A stretch of 59,274 nucleotides of DNA, filler included, from Dugesia japonica (lineage: Eukaryota): NCBI GenBank assembly GCA_001938525.1. It is 5 parts of 5 records of this genome, joined end to end, with 100 filler letters (N's around TTAATTAATTAA, not from the genome) between each part and the next. Parts side by side here need not be neighbours in the genome. Positions count along the whole stretch, not along the records: positions 33,778 to 50,846 come from MQRL01607261.1; 4 more parts are not named here. One strand, written 5' to 3'. Position 1 is the stretch's first letter; each line of letters opens with the position of its first letter. The notes beneath the pieces were generated by a model. That model searched no databases, was not told the origin of the DNA, and saw only the letters and a program-made list of their open reading frames with translations. Below are positions 33,778 through 50,513 of this stretch, in pieces. A program made the translations under genes and the position numbers.

Positions 33778-33818
33778 AATGTTAGATGATTTATTTTAAA
33801 TGGGTCCCTTTGGGTAAT

Positions 33819-34814
33819 TTATTTTGATTCAAAGTATATTTTAATTTTACTTAAGTTCTTTTCAATTTTTCTAAATGACCAATCTGATTTTAAAACATCT
33901 AAATATTTTCTTGCAAACTGATGAAATCTAATTATTTTATTTATATAATTAATTTTTATGTTTATACCAATTTTATGTAAATGATTTTCCACATCATTAT
34001 TACACTTTAAATTTTTTTTCAATACTTTAAAATAATAACCTAAATAATAATAACTTATTAAAGTAATTCGTTTTCCAATATTAACATTGTTATACCAATA
34101 TTTAATATTATCGTTTAAAGTTACTAAATTTATCTGTAGGTTATTTTCATTTTCTGGAGCTGTTATTACATTTTCTAAATTAAATGTATTAGGAAGAGTT
34201 ATTTCATTATTAATTGATTTTATAAATTCTTTAATTAATTCATCTTCTTCAATATTTTCTTGGATATTTTTATTTCCCAAAGGCACGCGTGCCTTCGAAA
34301 TTATTTCAGTTTTATTTTCAACATTTTCATCTTCTTCAATATTTTCTTGCCGGATATTTTCTTCAACAATTTCTTCTTCTTAAACATTTTCATTTTCTTC
34401 AATATTTTGTACGTAGTCCAGCTCAGCACCTTCTTGCTGGATATTTTCTTCAACATTTTCTTCTTCNNNNNNNNNTTCTTCTTCTTCTATAAATTTTACA
34501 CCTTTAACTTTTTTAACTTTTTGTACGTAGTCCAGCTTAGCGCCTTTAACTTTTACTTCTTCAATTTCTTCTTCAATATTTTCTTCTTCTTCTATAAATT
34601 TTACACCTCTAGCTTTTACATTTTCTTCTTCTATAAATTTTGCACCTCTAGCTTTTTGTACGTAGATAGATACATCATTCCAATATTCTGGTTTTAAATT
34701 ATTTAATCCATTCCATTTACTTGTTAATGGTGAAGATTGTAAAAATATATTAATTTTATATGCACATTGTTTACAACACAATTCACAAATTTCTTTTCTA
34801 AGTTTTTCGTTCAT
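33819..34814 (-). pseudogene. Polinton protein with acidic EEENIEE repeats and a basic helical C-terminal domain (in-frame stop at 34380-34382)
   Basis: Track ORFs 34380-34814 and 33819-34286 are in frame; reading through TAA gives ...ENENV*EEEIVEENIRQENIEEDENVENKTEIISKARVPLGNK... (~330 aa). Confidence 0.75.
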
Positions 34815-34899
34815 CCTTTCTATTTCTTAAATAAAAATTATAATCTTAAGTTGGTAGCATGCTACCAGGTTTCAGATTCCAAGTTTTGACTTTTTTGTG

Positions 34900-35490
34900 T
34901 CATTGTATTCCTAGCTTCGCGCGCATTTCATTTATAACTTTAGTTTGATTTTCAACCAATAATTTTAAATTATCATCTTTAGTTTTTTTATGACCAGAAA
35001 TTAATTCATGAACATCACTAACCCTTTTCTTAGAAATCATTAATTCTTCATCAGTTAAGATTTCATCATTTACTGCTTTCTGTTGAAATAAGAATAATTT
35101 ATTTTTAACACATTCAAGTTTAATTATTAACTTTTCATACTTTTCTTTTCTAGATTTTATTAATGAAGTATTTAATGTTCCAATTACAGGTAAAACGGAA
35201 ATTGCGCCAGTTATAATTGGTATTCCGATTGTTGTAAGCGCAATTCCAACTGGAGTAATTAATACAATTCCGGTGATTCCAATTCCAGCACTAATAAATA
35301 TTTGTGCATATTTTATTCCTGAATCTATTCTATTCCATCTTCTATGTATTTTCTTATAATGTTTAATTTTATCTTTAATATAATAAAGATCATTCTCAAA
35401 ATCTTTAATTCTTGACATTACAAGTTTATTTTTTAAATCTAGGATCGTATAATCTTCATGTAAGCTAGGATATAATTTTTCCGTGTCCAT
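34900..35490 (-). CDS. Polinton/adintovirus two-TM membrane protein (resembles the family labelled 'gasderminX' in adintoviruses)
   Basis: N-terminal LYPSL, basic helix, Gly-rich hydrophobic hairpin (ISAGIGITGIVLITPVGIALTTIGIPIITGAISVLPVIG), then KEKYEKL...KAVNDEILTDEE matching the KKH..I...KAL.D..IS.EEF pattern as I recall it. Confidence 0.65.
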   Translation of the reverse strand: MDTEKLYPSLHEDYTILDLKNKLVMSRIKDFENDLYYIKDKIKHYKKIHRRWNRIDSGIKYAQIFISAGIGITGIVLITPVGIALTTIGIPIITGAISVLPVIGTLNTSLIKSRKEKYEKLIIKLECVKNKLFLFQQKAVNDEILTDEELMISKKRVSDVHELISGHKKTKDDNLKLLVENQTKVINEMRAKLGIQ

Positions 35491-35506
35491 TTCTTAAGTA
35501 AAAACT

Positions 35507-38279
35507 TTAATCTCCTGAAATTCTAATAGTACCAATGTAAATTCCTTTATGTAAAGTTAATTCTATAAAGTTTTTTAAATTTTCATAATAATACAAGTGA
35601 ATGTTAATCTTTTTTGTTCCCATATAATCCACAATAATCTTCCCATTATGTTCATATATAGTATTATTTAATTTAATGGAATATTTAAAATTTCCAGTTT
35701 TATATTGATTACCATAAACTTCAATTAATAAATGTTTTATAGGTGAAATTAGCTTTATAGAAACAACAAATGATTCTTCAAGATAAAACTGTGTATCATT
35801 TTTTATTACATCTTTTCTTTTAAAATCTATTCTTTCTACTTTTTCATTAATACAATAATAAGGAACACTTTTTTTATTATCATGTACACTTAAAGCAAAT
35901 ATATATCTAGTAACATGCTCACAATTAAGTGGAAGGAAATTGTCAAATATTTCTTTTATACTTTTTATTGTTAACTCTTCTCCATTTTCAATATATTCTT
36001 TCATCAATAGATCAATTCTTTTAATTTGAACATTATGAAGTTCTGGTTTTATTCTTTTATATTCTTTAATTATTTTATATGAAATTTTNTATGTAATAAT
36101 TTTAATATTTAAATNCATTAAATAAATTCCTTTTGGTAAAATTATTTGTATAAAATTTATATTATTATCTTTTAAAATTTCAGTGTTTTCTCTATAAATG
36201 CTAACAAGATTATCATTAGGTTTAAAATAAAAATATGTTGATGTAATATTATTAATTTTATTGATATAAGTAAATTTTGTAACTTCACAAAAACCATCTA
36301 TACTTATACCAACTTTACTATTTAATTTNNNNNNNNNNNNNNNNNNNNNNNNNNNNNNNNNNNNNNNNNNNNNNNNNNNNNNNNNNNNNNNNNNNNNNNN
36401 NNNNNNNNNNNNNNNNNNNNNNNNNNNNNNNNNNNNNNNNNNNNNNNNNNNNNNNNNNNNNNNNNNNNNNNNNNNNNNNNNNNNNNNNNNNNNNNNNNNN
36501 NNNNNTAGGTGTATTTGAATATGGTAAGTAATTATCAATTAAATGTTTTATATTTTTAGTGTCATATGTTTTAGATAAATTATTAAATTTATTAACAAAC
36601 ATTTTATGGAGGTATGGTTTTATTATTTCAAATTCTTTAGTTAAATCTTCATAAATTTTAAAAGTACTCAATTTAATAACTACGCTCTTTAATTTAAATT
36701 CATTTACAAAAATTATTTCAATGTAATTTATTTTTGTTTCTTTATTAATTTCAGTGCTTTCACGATAAATTTTAACATTTCTATCTTCAGGTGTAACATG
36801 ATCCATTACTAATGCCATATTATTAATTTTAATGGTGTAAAGAAATTTTACAATATCACATTTATCCTCAATATATATACAAACTTTTTCTTTAATATCT
36901 GTATGTAAAACAATAGAATTTTTTGTAAATTTAAAATTAGTTACATGATCACTAATATGAGATTGATTGTTGTTAAATGTTAATATTGTATTGTTATTTG
37001 GTAAAAAAACATAAGGTTTGTAATTATCAAAAATTTCTCTTAAAGCTTTGAAATTATAAGTTTTAAATAAAACATTAATTTTATCAATATCTATTTTATG
37101 AAATTTTTTCATTTCATATTCTTTAGTTAATTTCTTTAACATTTCTAATTTATAAAAATTAATAGATAATTCAAGTAAATAAACATCTGGTAAAGTTATT
37201 GAAATATAATTAATAATGGTTTCACTGCTTTCATAATAAATTTCAAAATCATTATCATCATCTTTAAGTACATGATAAAAAAATGATTGTGAAATATTAT
37301 TAATTTTAATGTTATAAGTAAATGATACATGTGTATGTTTACCTTCCATATTTATAATAATTTTTTCATTAATGTTTTTTGTGTATAAAATAATAGATTT
37401 TATGAAATCTTTAGTTCTTTTAAAATCAAAATTATAAAAATATTTTTGGTTTAAACCATATTTAAGAATTGTATGACCATAAAGGAAAAATATAACGTTT
37501 TCAACACGACTAGCATAAGAAAAGTAATTATCAATCATTTCTCTTAATTTTGTAAGTGTTGAATTTGAAAGTGTTTCTTTATATTTTTTAAATAAAACAT
37601 AAATTCTATCACTATATATTTTATGTTGTTTTTCATTTACTATTTTAATTTTTTTAGTTAATTTTAAAATTATAGGTTTAAATTTTCCTATATAGATTTT
37701 AAGATTAACAATAGAAGTTATTTGGTTGTCAAATGTTTTCTTATCTAAATCAGCATCTAAAATATTAATTGTTCTTTTTATTATCTCAATTTCTTTTTTA
37801 AATTTTTCACACAAATCTCCATCATTAACTATTATTTTTAATTTAATAATTAAATCACTTCTTTTAAATGGAAAAAGTTCTGCTTTAAATCTTTTGATAT
37901 CATAATCTATTTTATCAAATGTTTCTTTTTTACAATTTTTATTATTTATACTTTTCACATCAACATTTAACATTTTTAATTCATCAGCTTTAGATTGTAA
38001 ATTTAATTTGTTAGATGTAAAATTATCAATCTTTAATAATTTTGAGAATATTAATTCATGTTTCTGTATTTTATCTTCAAGTTGTTTTATATATTTTAAA
38101 TTAACAGCACCTGATAGATCTATGGGATCTTCTGTTATTTTTAAAGATGATATTTTATCACCTGTTTCATTTACAAATTTATTTTCATTTTGTGCATCTG
38201 AAATTTTAAGTTTAGCATCAACAGTTTTTAATATTTGTGTAGTATCTCCAGCATTAACACTTGTTCCAAAATTATTCAT
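35507..38279 (-). CDS. ~920-aa putative fibre/attachment protein with four tandem ~165-190-aa repeats
   Basis: Two track ORFs joined across the N gap 36329-36504. N-terminal FVNETGD...DPIDLSGAVNLKY resembles fibre/trimeric-adhesin neck motifs; repeats begin at ~37625, 37100, 36608 and 36037. Confidence 0.6.
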
Positions 38280-38703
38280 TCTGCGCTATTTCTTTATATA
38301 AATTTTTCATCTCTAAAATTATCTCAGTGAACTCGCTTGGGTCAAGTTTATATAAAAAATAAATACATAAGATTCCACATATTTCAGTACCAAAATGTTG
38401 AACTTGAATTTTATTATATTTCTTTAACCCAGAGGGAACCGTGACTTTTTCAATTTCTTCTAAAGGTTTTAAACCAAAAGATTCAAAATAATAACCTTTG
38501 GTATAACATGTCCAATGTGTTCCTTTTTGATTTGAATTTTGATAATTAAACATATAATTCATGTTTAAGTCTAATATGTTAGGTGTCTCATTTTTCATAT
38601 AAATCTCTAATGGTATTTCTAAAAAGTTTGCAATTGAATATAAATCAAAATTTGTAGTTGTGTTGATTCCAAATGTTTTTAAGAAATCTAATAATGAATA
38701 CAT
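38272..38703 (-). CDS. Adenain-like cysteine maturation protease
   Basis: GTHWTC (catalytic His), YFESFG (acidic residue), QVQ...ICGILC (Gln and catalytic Cys). Overlaps the next gene start by 8 nt. Confidence 0.9.
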   Translation of the reverse strand: MYSLLDFLKTFGINTTTNFDLYSIANFLEIPLEIYMKNETPNILDLNMNYMFNYQNSNQKGTHWTCYTKGYYFESFGLKPLEEIEKVTVPSGLKKYNKIQVQHFGTEICGILCIYFLYKLDPSEFTEIILEMKNLYKEIAQNE

Positions 38704-38716
38704 CTTTATCTCTTTC

Positions 38717-39379
38717 TTAAAGTCGATATTTACGTAAATGAACTAAAATTGTAATTGTTTCTTTATTAAAATCTATTGTGTTAAAATTTTCATCCATAAT
38801 NNNNNNNNNNNNNNNNNNNNNNNNNNNNNNNNNNNNNNNNNNNNNNNNNNNNNNNNNNNNNCTTTCTACTATTTTATATCCAAAAGGAACTGTATTAATT
38901 GGAAATGAATATAAAAGATTAATATTTTTAGTTTCGCCATTAGATTTTACATAATTACCTTTAACAATATTACAAGTTATATTTATCGCATTAATATTTG
39001 AAATATTAACTTTATTATCTAAATAATAATTTCCTGGTTCATAAGTTTTTGGTTTAAAACCTAAAATTGTATGAAAGAAAGATTTATTATCAAAAGTTAA
39101 AACNTTTTTTAATTTAATGTTACATTTTGAAGTTGCTGTATCTGGTATAATTTCTATTCCATGTTTTTCTAAACGAATTGAAATTTATTTTACTTCATAT
39201 GCTCCAGGTTCTAAACTTGTTGTGTTAAATTTATTATTATTATTGGTAACATTAAAAATAATATTGTAACATGAAAAATATAATAATCCAAGTTCATACT
39301 CTGAATCTAATTTTATAGGATAATTTAAATTTATTTTTAAATCTTCTTCTGTTCCAACCACTAAGAATTGATGCGACAT
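38717..39379 (-). pseudogene. Minor capsid protein (penton), in-frame stop at 39185-39187
   Basis: Manual read-through: ...YPIKLDSEYELGLLYFSCYNIIFNVT...EPGAYEVK*ISIRL...ILGF...NISNINAINITCNIVKGNY...LLYSFPINTVPFGYKIVE-[gap]-IMDENFNTIDFNKETITILVHLRKYRL*, the typical Polinton/adintovirus penton pattern. Confidence 0.85.
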
Positions 39380-40400
39380 TTATTTATTATAATATTTAGA
39401 TTTATATTTTTTATAAATCTTGTTAGATATTAAACCATGAGTTTTTAATTTTTTACAAACGCTCTTAATTTCTTCATTAAGATTATTATGTCCAGATTTT
39501 GCTGCAGAAATTAATAATGTTTACTTTTCAAATAATCCTATCGGCCCAGAGGGACCCATTTTCACTCCTTTACCTACCAATTTTTCCAAACTTTTTTGTC
39601 TACCTCTTTGTTTTTGGTTTTTTATTTTTCTTAAAAAATTACAATATTCATCATCTTCAGTTGCTTTTACCAATTTTAAATACATTTCAATATAATTTTT
39701 TGTTTGTTGATCTGGCTTTATACTTTCTTTATTTCCTAAAATTATATTTGTTAAAATATCACTAAATGCATGAGTTTCACCACCAATATTAAAATAAGCA
39801 AAATTTCCCCTTTTATATAAAAATATCTCATTATCATTTTCAGGAAATTTTAATGTTAAGAATTTTTTATCAGCTTCTCCTTTTAAACCAACATTTGTAT
39901 AAAACATTTGTGGTGTTGTTAAATATGTTAATGCATTTTCTTTAATTTTAAAATCTTCATTAAAAACAATTGGTTTTATATCATCTTTCCTTAATATTTC
40001 AAATTTTTTATCTGTGCTTTCTTCTTCTTCTTTTATTATTAGTTCTTCTTTATCTTTTATTATTGCTTTATCTTTTATTATTGGTTCTTTTATCATTAAT
40101 TGTTTTGGTATTTGTGCGGTGATTTTTGGTTCTAATACAAGTTTTTCTAATGCATTTATTGTTGGTTGTTGTAAAACTGATAAGTTACTTTGTAAATTTT
40201 TATAATCAAGANNNNNNNNNNNNNNNNNNNNNNNNNNNNNNNNNNNNNNNNNNNNNNNNNNTTATTGTTGGTTGTTGTAAAACTGATAAGTTACTTTGTA
40301 AATTTTTATAATCAAGAACTTTACTACAAAAAAAAATATTATATTTTTCTTGAGCTTTAATTAAATCTTTTAATACTTTAATTCTTTCATTAACTTCCAT
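39380..40400 (-). pseudogene. Conserved uncharacterised Polinton protein (DP..L..RL.LL.AS..AGN...NEI family), in-frame stop at 39521-39523
   Basis: Read-through gives GKGVKMGPSGPIGLFEK*TLLISAAKSGHNNLNEEIKSVCKKLKTHGLISNKIYKKYKSKYYNK*; the stop abuts the penton ATG. The 5' part spans an overlap-type assembly gap at 40212-40261. Confidence 0.75.
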
Positions 40401-40416
40401 TTCTTATAAAAATATT

Positions 40417-40929
40417 TTAGCTTTCATCTTCTGTTTCATATTCTGTTTCTTCATCAACATTTCCTCCTTTATGTGGATTATATGGATTTAAATATAANNN
40501 NNNNNNNNNNNNNNNNNNNNNNNNNNNNNNNNNNNNNNNNNNNNNNNNNNNNNNNNNNNNNNNNNNNNNNNNNNNAAAATATTTATGAATTGCAGAACCT
40601 TGATATGAATTTAAATATAAACCAGATCCTTCAGTTTTTGTTTCAGTTTTAGGTTTATCAAGTAATTCGATCTCTTTTTGAACTTTAATTGCATTTCTAG
40701 AATTAGTAACTGTATTTGCAATTCCACTTGCTATTCCAGCAGTTCCAGCTAACGCACCAATAATTGCTGGGATAGCAGCTAAAAATGCAAAACAACCCTC
40801 TTTAGATTTCTTCTTAACTTCATCTTTTACTTTTTTACTGATATAATAATTTTTACCATTAATTTTTACAGTTTTACATTTTTTAGAATTTAGTATTCTT
40901 TCTAATTCTTCTTCTGTTGGATTACTCAT
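40417..40929 (-). CDS. pX/pVI-like virion core or membrane-lytic precursor
   Basis: Basic N-terminus, KEG(C)FAFLAAIPAIIGALAGTAGIASGIANTV hydrophobic/amphipathic segment after a GG|F-like adenain site, and repeated GSGLYLNSY / LYLNPY motifs. No PLA2 domain visible. Confidence 0.65.
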   Translation of the reverse strand: MSNPTEEELERILNSKKCKTVKINGKNYYISKKVKDEVKKKSKEGCFAFLAAIPAIIGALAGTAGIASGIANTVTNSRNAIKVQKEIELLDKPKTETKTEGSGLYLNSYQGSAIHKYFXXXXXXXXXXXXXXXXXXXXXXXXXXLYLNPYNPHKGGNVDEETEYETEDES

Positions 40930-40953
40930 TTCTTATAATAAAAATATTGAGTG

Positions 40954-43900
40954 TCAACGAATAAAGAGTGAAACGAGTGCTAAACATTTTAATGTTTTAT
41001 TTATTAAATCTAATCTTAAATGCCAATCTTCACATTTTTCATATGTATATTGATTTCCATGTGACCATGTTCTAGTTCCATTATCTTCTATAATTGTTTT
41101 ATCACTATATCCTGTTAAAGCAATCTTTTTTTGTTTGGTTAATTCAATTTCATGTAATTCAGATTTTAATGAATAGTTTGTTCCATAAATTATTTGTTTA
41201 GGATCATTTAAAACAGAATCACATTCTTTCATTCCAATTTTATTAAAAGATTGTACACCTTTATGTTTTTTACTAAATTTAATATTTCCTCTTTCTTCTA
41301 TACCCAGAGGGACCCATTCATAAGCATTAGATTTTGGTTTTATAAAATCACATTTAAGTATTTCAGAATTAGGCATTTCATCTTTCATCTGAAATAAATC
41401 ATTTCCAGTTAATCTATTTAATTTTTCTAAATTATCTTTTCCAATTATCTCAACAAATACGGAATCGGTATCGCTGAAGTGTATTTTATAATTATTTTGA
41501 CCGACTTCTGGTTCTAATTGATTATATACAAAATTGTACATTACCTCTTTTGCATATTCAAGAATTGTAAATCCTAAATATGGAAATTTATTATATTTTA
41601 AATTAGTTTTTATCATATGAACTACAGCTATTGTTTCAATAGTTTCATTATCTAATTTAAAACTTTTAGTACTTAAATAAGTTGGTTTAGATGTATACTT
41701 TTGAAAATCTTTATCAGTTCCTACAATATGTATGTTACATCTATTTCTTATATTTTCAAGTGTTTTACCATAAAATGAATTATTTATATCTTTAAAGAAA
41801 GTTACACCAAATTCATCATTATTTCTTTTTGCTATATTTCTTTCATCAATATTAAAAAGTATGTAATCTCTTAACCATGGAATTGTTGGCATTTTATATT
41901 TAGTATGAATCTTTTTTAATTTCATTCCTAGTTTTAAATAGAGATCTAAAGTTGATCCAAGTATAATATATTTTTCTTAATCAAGTTGATTCATTGTTAA
42001 TTTAATATTTTTATTTGATAATTTTTTATTAAATGATTTTTGATAATTACTTAACATATCATCTGTAATAAGAATTCTATCAGGTGCTAATGGAAAATAT
42101 TTTGTTCTATCATGAATTTCTGGTGGATAATCTAAGTCAACTTCATAAAGATAATTCATTGTATCAGTTGCTGTTTCATATCCCAACTCCTCACACTCAA
42201 TAAATTCACCTGTTAGTAATGGTTTTGTCATACAACTTGCATATAAAGAATTTGTATCTAAATATTTTATGTAGGTGTCATCAAAATAATAATTTGGAAT
42301 ATTTTTTCCTTCACGTAATAATTTTGCTATTTCTTCTGATTGTGCTTTATTTATTTTTCTGTATGGGTCTGAAGAATTATGACTGAAAACTTGACGATCA
42401 CCTTCTTCTCCAGAATATCCACCTCTAACTCCACGTTCAAATTTTAGGAAAGTATCATAAGTTTCTTGTTTNNNNNNNNNNNNNNNNNNNNNNNNNNNNN
42501 NNNNNNNNNNNNNNNNNNNNNNNNNNNNNNNNNNNNNNNNNNAACTTGGATCTATTTTATAAAATTCTAAACAAATCTTTCTAAAATTTTCTACATAATC
42601 TGAAAGAATTAATACATCTAATTTCATATAGTGTAACATGTAATCCCAAAGATTATTAAAATTATTATCATTTAAGAATTCTTGATAATCATTATCAGAT
42701 ATTCCTTTTTGTTTTAATATATTAAAGAATTCTTCTTTTGTTGGTATTTGATCTGATTTTAATAATTGTATAACTTCTTTGACATTATTTGCTTTAACAT
42801 AATCATATGGAAAATGAGCTTTTTTAGGTCTTAAGTTAAATGAATTTAATATTTCATGATTTTTTGATTTAGTTAATGTTTCACCCATTTTCTCAACTGA
42901 TGTTTTACATATTTTAAAAGAATCTAGAAATCTAATATTTTTATATTGAAATGTGATATATTGATCATCAGAATGTGGAATTATTTTCTTTATTTCATTT
43001 GGATGTTTTGTTAAAAGTTGTTTAAAGAATAAATGATTGTCATAACCCATTGCATTATGAAAATAACATGGAATAAATAAGTTTCTTTTACTTTTATCTT
43101 GAAGATTACATTCAGAATGTGTATAACCTCGAAATTCTCCATTAAAATGATTATGATCTAAAACTGGATTTTCTGTTATTTGTTTTTCACAATAATAACA
43201 TTTTTGATTTCGTTTAAATGCTGGACATATTCCTGTATATTCTTTTATTAACTTTTTGAAAATAACATCTTTAAATTTTTTATTAATATCTTCAAGAAAC
43301 TTTATAAAATCATTAACCACATTTTCTCCTAAAAATTCATAATATTTACTTGGTATTAAATCTGGATAATCTGATTTTAAATATATTCCTAAACTTATTG
43401 GTTCTTGAATATTATTTTCTTTTGTGTAACATTCAAAATCAGCATACATTACAAATGGTATTTTATTTTTAAAATAATTATTTTTAAATTCAAAGTATTC
43501 CTCTATAGGAAATATTACTTTTGCTGTTTTATGATGAATACATTCTTCTTGATGTTTTAATAAAACTTCTTTAGATGAATATTGATTCATACAACCAAGA
43601 CACAAATAATTTCCTGGTTTAACATTAAATAAAGTATGTACATTTCTAACTAATACATAATGATTTTTATAAAGTAACAAATCACATTTATTTTCTTCAG
43701 GATTTGGTTTTATTGAATAATGTGAAATACGAATTGGTGTAATGTTATCATTTAATTCAAAAAGATTTATTTTAAAATTATTTAACTTTTCTAATTTCTT
43801 TATATCTTCAATTGCTGATGGAAATGTCATTCCTTCAGTTTTTAATTCTGGTAAATGTAGAATATAATTTCCTACACGTGTTGCTTGTGGTAAAACATGT

Positions 43901-44721
43901 TTATGTGCAAGAACTGAATATAATAAACATTTATTATCTCTGTTTTTTATATTAATAACTCCATATTTTTCAAATGGTAATTTACAATATGTTGCCCCAA
44001 CTAATGATTGATATTTTTCTAATTCTAATTTAAAATCAATTATGTGATCATAGTTCCAATTAGATTCACATCGATCTATATCTTGAATATATCTTTCTAC
44101 TTCTTCAAACATTTGATTTATCTTTTTTAGGTATTGATGCTTTTGTATAAATTTTTCTATTTATAGTGTAAGAATAAAAATTAGCTATTCTTCCTTCTTT
44201 ACTATATTGACAATTAACTCCCATTTTAAATTTATGACCTNATTTAAAAAACTCTAAACAAATATGTTCTACAAATGGTTTAAGTGGTTCAACCGATCTT
44301 AATTTAAATCTTTCAATATTTCTTGTAATACATAATCTGCTATTTAAAAATACATTAATATCATAATCTGGATATGTTTCTTGATTGAATTTTCTCTAAT
44401 ATGTCTTGGTTTATCTTTTCGATTTTTCATCAATCTAGAAATTAATTTTAAATGAAGTTTACTTTTAAAATTTTCTTCTAATGCTTCTTCATTTGGAAAA
44501 TGTTTATCACAAAATTCACAATATAAATCAACACTACCACATTTAGTTTTTCTCTTGTGTATATTTAAACCAGATTGGGTTTTAAATTTTTTTTCACATA
44601 CTTCACAAATTACCCAATCATTTGGATTTAAAACTACACATGTTTTAGATTGAATATGTGAATTTAATCCTCGTTTATTTTTAAATGGTTTATCACAATT
44701 AGGACATCTTAATGTAGACAT
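40954..44721 (-). pseudogene. Protein-primed family B DNA polymerase polyprotein (3x C2H2 ZnF, OTU-like protease, exonuclease with EndoVII insert, polymerase)
   Basis: Exonuclease motifs YADFE, FHNAMGYDNH, FLDS, YMKLDV; polymerase motifs YLDTNSLY, KDINNSFYGK, SDTDS; EndoVII-like CYYC...DHNHFNGEFRGYTHSECNL; DNKCL...HYVLV. In-frame TAA at 41977-41979 (LD*EKYIILGSTLDLYLKLGMKL). Frameshifts in A-runs near 44390 and 44125 link the ZnF ORF via an open linker (KFNQETYPDYDINVFLNSRLCITRNIERFKLRSVEPLKPFVEHIC...). Confidence 0.92.
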
Positions 44722-45539
44722 TTTTATTTTCTTCCTCTTTTTTTATTATAATAAATTTAATCATATCTCTTAAATTTTTCCTCTTAAATTTTACAAACAT
44801 TTACATGAGGCATTTCACATTTCGTGATTAAAATTTTTGGTTAAAATTTTTACATGTCANNNNNNNNNNNNNNNNNNNNNNNNNNNNNNNNNNNNNNNNN
44901 NNNNNNNNNNNNNNNNNNNNNNNNNNNNNNNNNNNNNNNNNNNNNNNNNNNNNNNNNNNNNNNNNNNNNNNNNNNNNNNNNNNNNNNNNNNNNNNNNNNN
45001 NNNNNNNNNNNNNNNNNNNNNNNNNNNNNNNNNNNNNNNNNNNNNNNNNNNNNNNNNNNNNNNNNNNNNNNNNNNNNNNNNNNNNNNNNNNNNNNNNNNN
45101 NNNNNNNNNNNNNNNNNNNNNNNNNNNNNNNNNNNNNNNNNNNNNNNNNNNNNNNNNNNNNNNNNNNNNNNNNNNNNATTTTCTCATTTCACATTTGACA
45201 CTCAAAATTGACACCAAAATATTTGGACAACAATCCAGTCCTAATTATGGGTGTTATTTATATACTTCTATATTATAACAATCATTAAAAGTTGAAATTT
45301 ACTCGAAAAATCATGAATTTAAAATCAAATGTAAAACTTAAAAATTTAATTAAAATAAATTAAAAGTAACAAATGAAATAAAATTATAAGATGGAAACAT
45401 TTTTTGCCAAAAGTTCTTTAGACAATGTATAAGTAGTTTNNNNNNNNNNNNNNNNNNNNNNNNNNNNNNNNNNNNNNNNNNNNNNNNNNNNNNNNNNNNN
45501 NNNNNNNNNNNNNNAAAGGGGTTTAGTACAACACACTCT

Positions 45540-48992: not shown

Positions 48993-50513
48993 TTATAGAA
49001 GCTCTGAACTACCTACAGGGGGTGCTGAAGGATCATTTGAAAATTTCAATGCAAATCCTTTATTTTTCAATGGTATTTTCATAAAACTTTCACTATTAGA
49101 TGGACTTTGAATATTTCTATTATTTTTTTGTTTTACTCGATTTCGTAAATCAATTTGATGATAACCTTCAGTTGAATAAATTTCAAACAATCGACAAACA
49201 ATACTACTAGTTGTTAAATCACCGACATTCATTGATAACATTCGAATAATAAAATTTCCATCTTGTCTTAAAAATTCCACAACGAATCTATCTATTTTTC
49301 GTTTGGTAAATGAATCGAATACACCGAAAATATCATTCATTTTTAAACATAATTTTACAATTTGTTTCTGAGATTTTCTACAAATAATACGATATATCCA
49401 TAATGGTAAACTTAATATCGTTAGGAATAGAACAATGCTGAAAAAAAAGTATAAAAATATATATATTTTTTCATTGAGCATATTTATTGGAAGAAGACAT
49501 TGAGCAACTGCGTTATTGATATTTCCCATTTGCTCTAAAGCATTTCGACACATACCAACTCTTGGAAAAACTTGAGTTTCTGTCCATTCTTTACCATCAA
49601 GAATATCTTTTAAAATTCGATGCCCGAATAGTGTATAACCTTCTTTTCTGTCTAATCTCAGAAAATAAAACATGAGATACAGTTGAAGAAATCCAATAAC
49701 GATATACATGATTTTCANGAGAAAATAAAATGTCACCAATAAATTTCCATTTCTTTTTCCTGGAATATGTCTAGAGATTCGATTCTTAATTGTTTCGGTA
49801 ACGGTTTTGATTTTCCTATGTCCAAATAACATTATTTCAATATTTCTTGAAATATGCTCAATAATTTTTTTTCTAGTTTCTTCGTCTTGACTATTGGCAT
49901 CATTAGCATCTTTTATCAATTGTTCAAGGTCCATTCCAACTCTATTGTAAGTTATTATTTGCCAGAACAATCTTGGTAAATAATACAAAATAGCTTGTAA
50001 TCCCAAAACAAACGGAATCCATTGATAATAATCTATAATGAATTGACATGTAAAATACAATAATAAATTGCTAATATAAAAATATATTAAATAATAATCA
50101 ATAAATTTATTAATCAATACATATGATATTAATGATAATTAATTACCAAAAAATAAACAAACACAAAATATTTTATTTTGATTGTGTGAGATGAACTTAC
50201 TCATTGTATCTTTCTGAAGAATTTTCCAGTCTTCTAATTTATGAGGAACTTTAGTCGATAAATTCATTGGAACTGTGCCTTCCACCCAACACATATTAGT
50301 TATATAATCTTCTGCATTGCTACCACCCGGTATTGTCGAAATATAGCATATAATTGGGTTCATAAAATACTGTCTCATAGANACTATTACAACACATATC
50401 ATTAGTACAATAATATTTCCTTGAAAATTAGCACGATCTGAAAAATCTTCCAAACCAGAGTATTGGACAACAGAAAATCCATTGATATAAGAAAGAAATT
50501 CAGTAGCCACCAT
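48993..50513 (-). CDS. inx: Innexin (gap-junction protein), 2 coding exons, ~450 aa
   Basis: Exons 50201-50513 and 48993-50032 (GT-AG intron) give ...DTMNYYQWIPFVL. Motifs EDFSDR, QYF..PI.C, YITNMCW, YYQW.P, FPRVGMC, QCLLPINMLNEKIYIFL, FLRQDG.F. Confidence 0.95.

Follow-up and report, generated by a model that had tools for sequence, protein, structure and literature searches.

A start-site motif across the genes of a Polinton family in Dugesia japonica and its possible reading by a co-infecting virus

Introduction

The window analysed here, a stretch of 59,274 nucleotides (nt; filler included) from the Dugesia japonica assembly GCA_001938525.1, contains between 33.8 and 44.8 kb, on the minus strand, a broken gene for a DNA polymerase B of the protein-primed type (pPolB) followed by seven co-oriented genes. 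The locus raises the question of which RNA polymerase reads these genes. A first-pass annotation of the window had claimed that baculovirus-like TAAG motifs mark the starts of structural genes, and had proposed that the element, which in its reading encodes no RNA polymerase, may depend on a helper virus. Among the open reading frames (ORFs) of the copies read here, we saw no gene of an RNA polymerase.

The window element is a broken, contig-cut member of a very large family in the 854 Mb genome, where pPolB has 127 scored matches and two other element genes have about 6,500 first-look candidates each. Judged by its gene content, the family belongs to the Polintons, or Mavericks. The intact pPolB of the family copy L046 matches PF03175 (E 1e-13), and the window gene is homologous to it, though broken. 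The contig starts at window position 33778, so the element arm with the ATPase, integrase, and major capsid genes is missing from the window copy, which also has masked bases near its other end. In sister copies the missing arm sits on the opposite strand and contains an A32-like ATPase (PF04665, L141), a PLA2-integrase fusion, a double-jelly-roll major capsid gene (PF21738, L146), and small variable genes. The rve integrase was identified in L146 (PF00665) and is cut off by the contig edge in the window copy. Together with pPolB, these proteins and the PLA2-like domain of the sister copies resemble those of animal Polintons (adintoviruses, Polintoviricetes), which are likewise integrated and present in many copies. 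In sister copies, a single open frame (L146:2674-3909) joins a zinc-finger-like N-terminus, the PLA2-like domain, and the rve integrase.

A start motif shared by ten gene classes

From 180 loci we gathered 278 starts in ten gene classes, using protein anchors for all but two, which came from motif-selected loci; a few genes supply two alternative starts. The motif was found by expectation-maximisation, and each class was scored with a matrix refined on the other nine at a threshold of 6 bits. Since 140 of the 278 starts went into the seed matrix, the hold-out is not entirely clean. The motif is about 22 nt long and runs from TAAA through T-rich positions (-13 to -10) and a short spacer to TWW(A/G/T), AAA, and T(G/AG). 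It is present with fixed spacing in all ten gene classes, the DNA polymerase class included, and reaches at least 6 bits at 223 of the 278 family starts. The same threshold is reached by 3 of 22 host starts (tubulin, dynein light chain, histones, innexin), a small set in which one H3 gene (L250) turned out to be Polinton-borne and scored below threshold, and from which one broken tubulin had been excluded beforehand. It is also reached by 22 of 539 internal in-frame ATGs, 1 of 21 integrase-internal ATGs, 66 of 1,500 random ATGs, and 9% of shuffles. A host start-codon context, which the first-pass annotation had named among the findings that would overturn its reading, is ruled out by the rarity of the motif at host starts. 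A TATA box is ruled out as well, since the ATG is fused to the motif and there is no peak at -30. The motif is a real, element-specific start-site signal, which is not based on TAAG and also occurs outside the structural genes.

Of the 278 starts, 163 have their ATG fused to the A-run, and in the other 115 the best site lies 1-25 nt from the ATG. The fusion would be expected if the motif were not a promoter at all, and instead served as a translation context, as a splice or trans-splice acceptor, or was spread between gene starts by template switching; the variable distance in the 115 starts shows that it is not tied to the start codon. The dinucleotide AG occurs within the core of 101 of the 223 sites and is absent from 122, which rules out a splice acceptor as the general reading, and no splice joints were seen among the very few element RNA reads. 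Exchange between starts is indicated by copy-specific cassettes and GC-rich hairpins, which recur at several starts of one copy. A function of the motif is indicated by the GATT element described below, which is class-specific and stands at a fixed distance, and by conservation of the motif in relatives with 27-46% capsid identity. Taken together, we consider a non-promoter origin of the motif improbable.

At many family starts (e.g. in L022, L034, L096, L163), such a cassette, often in tandem repeats, separates the AAA of the motif from the ATG and is shared by several genes within the copy, which suggests template switching between gene starts. GC-rich hairpins with stems of at least 6 bp stand just before the start motif at 10 of the 278 starts, against 0.05 in shuffles; they occur in copies L025, L046, L049, L074, L133, L159, and L161, two of which have them at two genes each.

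TAAG is one of several variants of the initiator

The sites listed by the first-pass annotation are present on the minus strand of the window. Three ATGs, at 40929, 40400, and 35490, are fused to TAAGAAATG; the ATG at 34814 has TAAGAAATA 15 nt ahead of it, beginning at 34829; TAAGAAAG begins at 38719, ahead of the protease ATG at 38703; and the variant TATAAAGAAAT stands ahead of the fibre-like start at 38279. TTTTTA in front of four of the sites was seen too. As a bare word, the 9-mer has five matches in the window against 2.2 expected, and 7 of 100 shuffles reach five, so its count does not clearly exceed chance. The whole genome has 389 copies of TTTTWTAAGAAATG and 374 of the reversed control, and at least five of the first 30 genome-wide 9-mer matches are recognisable Polinton gene starts. 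The feature that exceeds chance is the position at gene starts, not the count of the bare 9-mer. On the family motif, all eight gene starts of the window element score 6.7-17.2 bits, including the penton-like start at 39379 and the pPolB start at 44721, which had not been listed at first pass.

Across the family, AAA is present in 223 of 223 sites, AAAT in 202, and TAAG in 59. At orthologous starts TAATAAA, TATAAAA, and TAGAAAA substitute for TAAG. The restriction to structural genes does not hold, as 6 of 8 pPolB starts and 15 of 20 ATPase starts have the motif. TAAGAAA is nevertheless the commonest single variant, as expected of a baculovirus- or nudivirus-type late promoter (DTAAG) read by a helper LEF-4/8/9/P47 polymerase, and Spodoptera adintovirus genomes are described as co-purified with particles from baculovirus-infected cells (PMC8502044). 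Against this reading are the 164 sites that lack TAAG, and it is largely refuted by the replacement of TAAG at orthologous starts; the AcMNPV genes inspected in a review of AcMNPV promoters are reported to show no departure from TAAG (PMC9786725). The relatives L281, L282, L288, L289, and L291 also have no TAAG at the initiator position, and the motif extends beyond late genes to pPolB. A search of the assembly for the helper RNA polymerase subunit LEF-8, run without a positive control, gave no match. We regard a promoter of the baculovirus type as very improbable.

A GATT element upstream of the polymerase gene

At 13 of 16 pPolB starts the motif is extended by GATT, mostly as TATGATTAAA, with the G 20-21 nt before the AAA. 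GATT stands at the same distance at 11 of 25 accessory genes at the arm end, against 9 of 270 other starts. The vaccinia early element is described as 15 nt long, with TGA at positions 6-8 and its end a median of 12 nt before the transcription start (PMC6211774). By arithmetic from these values, the vaccinia TGA is at about -22 to -20, and the family GATT is near that position, with its distance counted from the AAA and not from a mapped transcription start. The flanks of GATT differ from the vaccinia AAAANTGAAAA.

Avoidance of TTTTTNT in the polymerase gene

TTTTTNT is the vaccinia early termination signal, as given in PMC2857044. We compared coding DNA with synonymous-codon nulls, using 91 pPolB fragments (122 kb), the 14 longest of which have 42-78% mutual amino-acid identity. 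The coding strand of pPolB contains 22 TTTTTNT words against 154 expected. The narrower word TTTTT[ACG]T is seen 13 times where 92 are expected (ratio 0.14; 0.06-0.31 in a column bootstrap) and falls below expectation in 16 of 18 columns; the antisense word is seen 421 times against 437 expected. The depletion affects all four N and all three frames. TTTTTNT is the most depleted of 2,767 wildcard 7-mers in pPolB, followed by GNTTTTT, and ranks 212th of 3,971 in the other genes, in which TTTTT[ACG]T is seen 119 times against 146 expected. Retrotransposon and host genes have 20 TTTTTNT against 25 expected, a comparison of low power. The window copy has one TTTTTNT in the 3,767 nt of pPolB and 17 in the next 7,160 nt, the first of which, TTTTTAT at 40944, lies 10 nt past the stop codon.

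If the element were transcribed by host RNA polymerase II (Pol II), the avoidance might guard the long AT-rich polymerase mRNA from premature 3' processing. However, among same-composition control words in pPolB (ratios 0.62-1.40), the equally U-rich TTTVTTT (1.40) and TTTTVTT (0.62) are not depleted like TTTTTNT, nor is TTTTTAG (38 seen against 48 expected). Depletion of AATAAA is uninformative as a test of Pol II (943/972 in Polintons, 67/67 in retrotransposons, 26/29 in host genes). A general avoidance of T-runs was rejected: Polinton coding DNA is short of long runs of both A and T, and the controls likewise of long A runs, yet this leaves the specificity for TTTTTNT unexplained.

Metagenomic relatives

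A capsid alignment search found 25 metagenomic loci with 23-46% identity. AT-rich relatives have the same motif design, ending in TAAAA(A)TG without TAAG, at 7 of 8 ORFs in L288 and 5 of 7 in L281. The distant, GC-richer L302 has the motif at none of its 19 ORFs. Two metagenomic pPolB fragments are too short to judge the depletion of TTTTTNT, and scans of viral contigs for relatives found none and supplied no independent pPolB controls. Divergent genes of the capsid module have 15-51 nt between their start codons (L291:600-616, L281:3158-3207, L282:744-796), with the T-run of one strand being the A-run of the other. The shortest distance, 15 nt in L291, would presumably leave little space for two Pol II promoters.

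A helper virus as the candidate reader of the motif

The A-run initiator, the TGA-like element at -20 of pPolB, and the avoidance of UUUUUNU in pPolB all fit a single known system, cytoplasmic transcription of the poxvirus type, and no RNA polymerase gene was seen in the element; a reading in trans by a helper is therefore favoured. We hypothesize that the start motifs are promoters read by the Nucleocytoviricota/poxvirus-type RNA polymerase of a co-infecting large DNA virus, and hold the case for this to be evenly balanced. We infer every step from the motif to transcription. The RNA polymerase and factors of a co-infecting cytoplasmic virus would read the motifs, and transcription would start in the AAA, giving nearly leaderless mRNAs, perhaps with slipped 5' A-heads. 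Genes of the GATT class would be transcribed early, by machinery that terminates at UUUUUNU, which would account for the avoidance of this word in the long polymerase gene, and virion genes would be late. As in mavirus-like elements, integrated copies would not be expressed before infection of the cell by a helper. The helper dependence proposed at first pass remains the best-supported mechanism, while its baculovirus type is not supported and no helper virus was found.

We further speculate, with somewhat less than even confidence, that a Maverick/Polinton lineage with thousands of copies is an endogenous virophage with a full poxvirus-style code (early element, A-run initiator, terminator avoidance). 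The code would be the mark of an undiscovered virus of this animal group, pox- or asfarvirus-like, and would be used across a wider Polinton clade.

Several observations weigh against reading by a poxvirus-type polymerase. The copies are related, so the start counts are not independent. A T directly precedes the AAA in only 21% of the sites, so that the vaccinia TAAAT initiator is not matched, and vaccinia intermediate promoters have their upstream TAAA 4 nt farther away. GATT is missing from two more probable pPolB starts, which come from motif-selected loci (L057, L069). The major capsid gene is partly depleted of TTTTTNT (14 against 54 expected), as is the membrane-protein gene (11 against 26), and the accessory genes are not (6 against 7.3 expected, with low power). 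Downstream of pPolB, TTTTTNT is not clearly enriched: it was seen within 100 nt of the stop in 2 of 29 cases and, in a second selection, in 5 of 10, and its frequency between the pPolB stop and the next gene, 14 of 56, is like that of other genes. In the assembly, ten RPB2-family and 19 family-B polymerase matches were all read as cellular by inspection, and a search for VLTF3, like that for LEF-8, gave no match and had no positive control. A cytoplasmic, non-integrating helper need not occur in the host assembly. The RNA reads on two copies are too few to map starts and form no start-site piles. Finally, in Schmidtea the polinton class is reported to gain RNA, and H3K4me3 in differentiation, with no virus added (PMC8532177).

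The same report, at the level of the class, describes Schmidtea polintons as de-repressed by loss of SMEDWI-2 and as targets of piRNAs (PMC8532177). These Schmidtea data are the best evidence for host transcription. The motif would then be an element-specific core promoter for Pol II in the nucleus, perhaps together with a DNA-binding protein that the element encodes; a host factor would bind at GATT, and piRNAs would account for the silence. Thousands of candidate copies are easier to reach without a helper, helper genes were not found in the assembly, and adintovirus transcripts are described from cavefish tissues (PMC8502044). Against Pol II stand the missing TATA-like peak near -30, the rarity of the motif at host starts, the selective loss of TTTTTNT among U-rich words, and the close divergent starts of L291. 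Furthermore, no transcription-factor identity was found among the uncharacterised proteins of the element by Atlas, Pfam, or a fold model. We consider host transcription a real possibility, with distinctly less than even probability. The assembly contains two genes of the Pol II second subunit (L363 = G000:C635376; L183/L185/L186); one is intronless, encodes 1156 amino acids, and is about 71-87% identical to fragments of the other.

Expression of the element is very low. In six oligo-dT or cDNA runs of three studies, 82-295 reads per 10.5-13.6 million records matched two copies; the searches covered 6-26% of each run, would miss diverged subfamilies, and include one run (X1) that may be DNA. 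At least 95% of the element-matching RNA reads are partial. This near-silence fits helper dependence and piRNA silencing equally.

Comparison with known systems

The sharing of helper promoters is already known from protist systems. Gezel-14T (PgVV-14T) is described as having its helper's early motif before its DNA polymerase gene (10.1101/2022.07.28.501842), and mavirus-like elements as sharing helper promoters, with EMALEs silent until helper infection (PMC10945749). Like the Dugesia family, these virophages have no RNA polymerase of their own and have a helper-type promoter motif before their genes. They differ in their protist hosts, their identified Mimiviridae-related helpers, and their motifs, whereas the host here is an animal and the dependence is proposed from sequence. 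A closer parallel in host is provided by entomopoxvirus occlusion bodies, which are reported to contain Polinton-like viruses, two of them divergent members of the Maverick-Polinton capsid clade, proposed to be hyperparasites of poxviruses (PMC11296320). These elements also have an animal host but, unlike the Dugesia family, were physically found in occlusion bodies. The words promoter and transcription are absent from the main text of PMC11296320, so no comparison of motifs is possible.

The likeness to vaccinia comprises the A-run initiator fused to the ATG, the upstream T tract, a TGA-like element about 20 nt upstream in the putative early class, and the early stop TTTTTNT. The vaccinia late consensus is given as having a T 10 nt before TAAATG (PMC11423596), and the T tract of the family is at that place. 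The family differs from vaccinia in having no conserved T before the AAA, TGA followed by TTAAA instead of AAAA, a shorter upstream spacing, and no clear terminator after pPolB. The yeast pGKL virus-like elements are grouped with the vaccinia signals and, unlike the family, encode their own polymerase. The baculovirus late promoter (A/G/T)TAAG shares TAAG with a minority of the family sites, and differs in that TAAG is freely swapped at orthologous starts and the motif extends beyond late genes.

A literature search, in which subscription journals were mostly outside the scope and supplements were not covered, found neither a promoter code at gene starts nor a dependence on helpers described for animal Polintons, and no account of the motif. 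A gene-by-gene promoter with early and late classes shows exactly where to map 5' ends and which type of helper to look for. GATT at -20 and the depletion of TTTTTNT in pPolB are cheap sequence tests, which could sort animal Polintons into lineages likely read by a helper or by the host. Even if the host polymerase reads the motif, the element-specific, near-leaderless core promoter is one that the literature search did not find described.

Genes and start sites of the window element

All genes and start motifs of the window element described here are on the minus strand. The pPolB gene, recognised by homology, has N-terminal C2H2 zinc fingers and is split into several frames (40954..44721). 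Its start motif with the TATGATTAAA extension, a putative early-class promoter in which the G is about 20 nt before the A-run, scores 6.7 bits (44738..44765). The next gene (40417..40929), small and with an amphipathic segment, presumably corresponds to cupiennin/PX-like genes; its class has 44 family starts, and the motif fused to its ATG scores 16.0 bits (40927..40948) and includes the TTTTTAT that follows the pPolB stop. The following broken ORF, a conserved Polinton gene that we tentatively take to be PZ-like (39383..40400), has its motif fused to the ATG at 40400 (40398..40419, 17.2 bits). A fold model of the PZ-like protein was of low confidence (pLDDT 59) and gave no Foldseek match. In a divergent Polinton copy, histone H3 sequence lies in frame within the PZ-like gene and is interrupted by a stop (L250:1117-1878).

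The broken ORF at 38720..39379 is presumably, from its position, a penton or minor capsid gene, and has a start motif without TAAG (TAAATAAATG) fused to its ATG (39377..39398, 11.9 bits). The next ORF, labelled an adenain-like cysteine protease at first pass (38272..38703), has the motif 10 nt ahead of its ATG (38711..38732, 12.2 bits). The protease and penton-like ORFs are conserved, and a Pfam search gave no match for them; the PX-like, PZ-like, and fibre-like labels likewise have no Pfam support. The fibre-like ORF, also labelled at first pass, is broken by masked bases and a frame change (35507..38279), and its motif lies 10 nt ahead of the ATG (38287..38308, 8.4 bits). A gene of a coiled-coil membrane protein of 196 amino acids (34900..35490), with 6460 first-look candidates in the genome, has its motif fused to the ATG at 35490 (35488..35509, 14.8 bits). 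The last ORF is a variable, acidic accessory gene, split by a stop (33819..34814), which ends close to the beginning of the contig; its start motif, with GATT at -20, belongs to the GATT class (34821..34845, 14.8 bits).

A GC-rich, copy-specific word of about 11-14 nt occurs four times in the window element, at 41313, 39555, and 38438 on the minus strand and at 33804 on the plus strand, and three of the occurrences are inside coding DNA. A host innexin gene (PF00876) adjoins the element at 48993-50513 on the minus strand.

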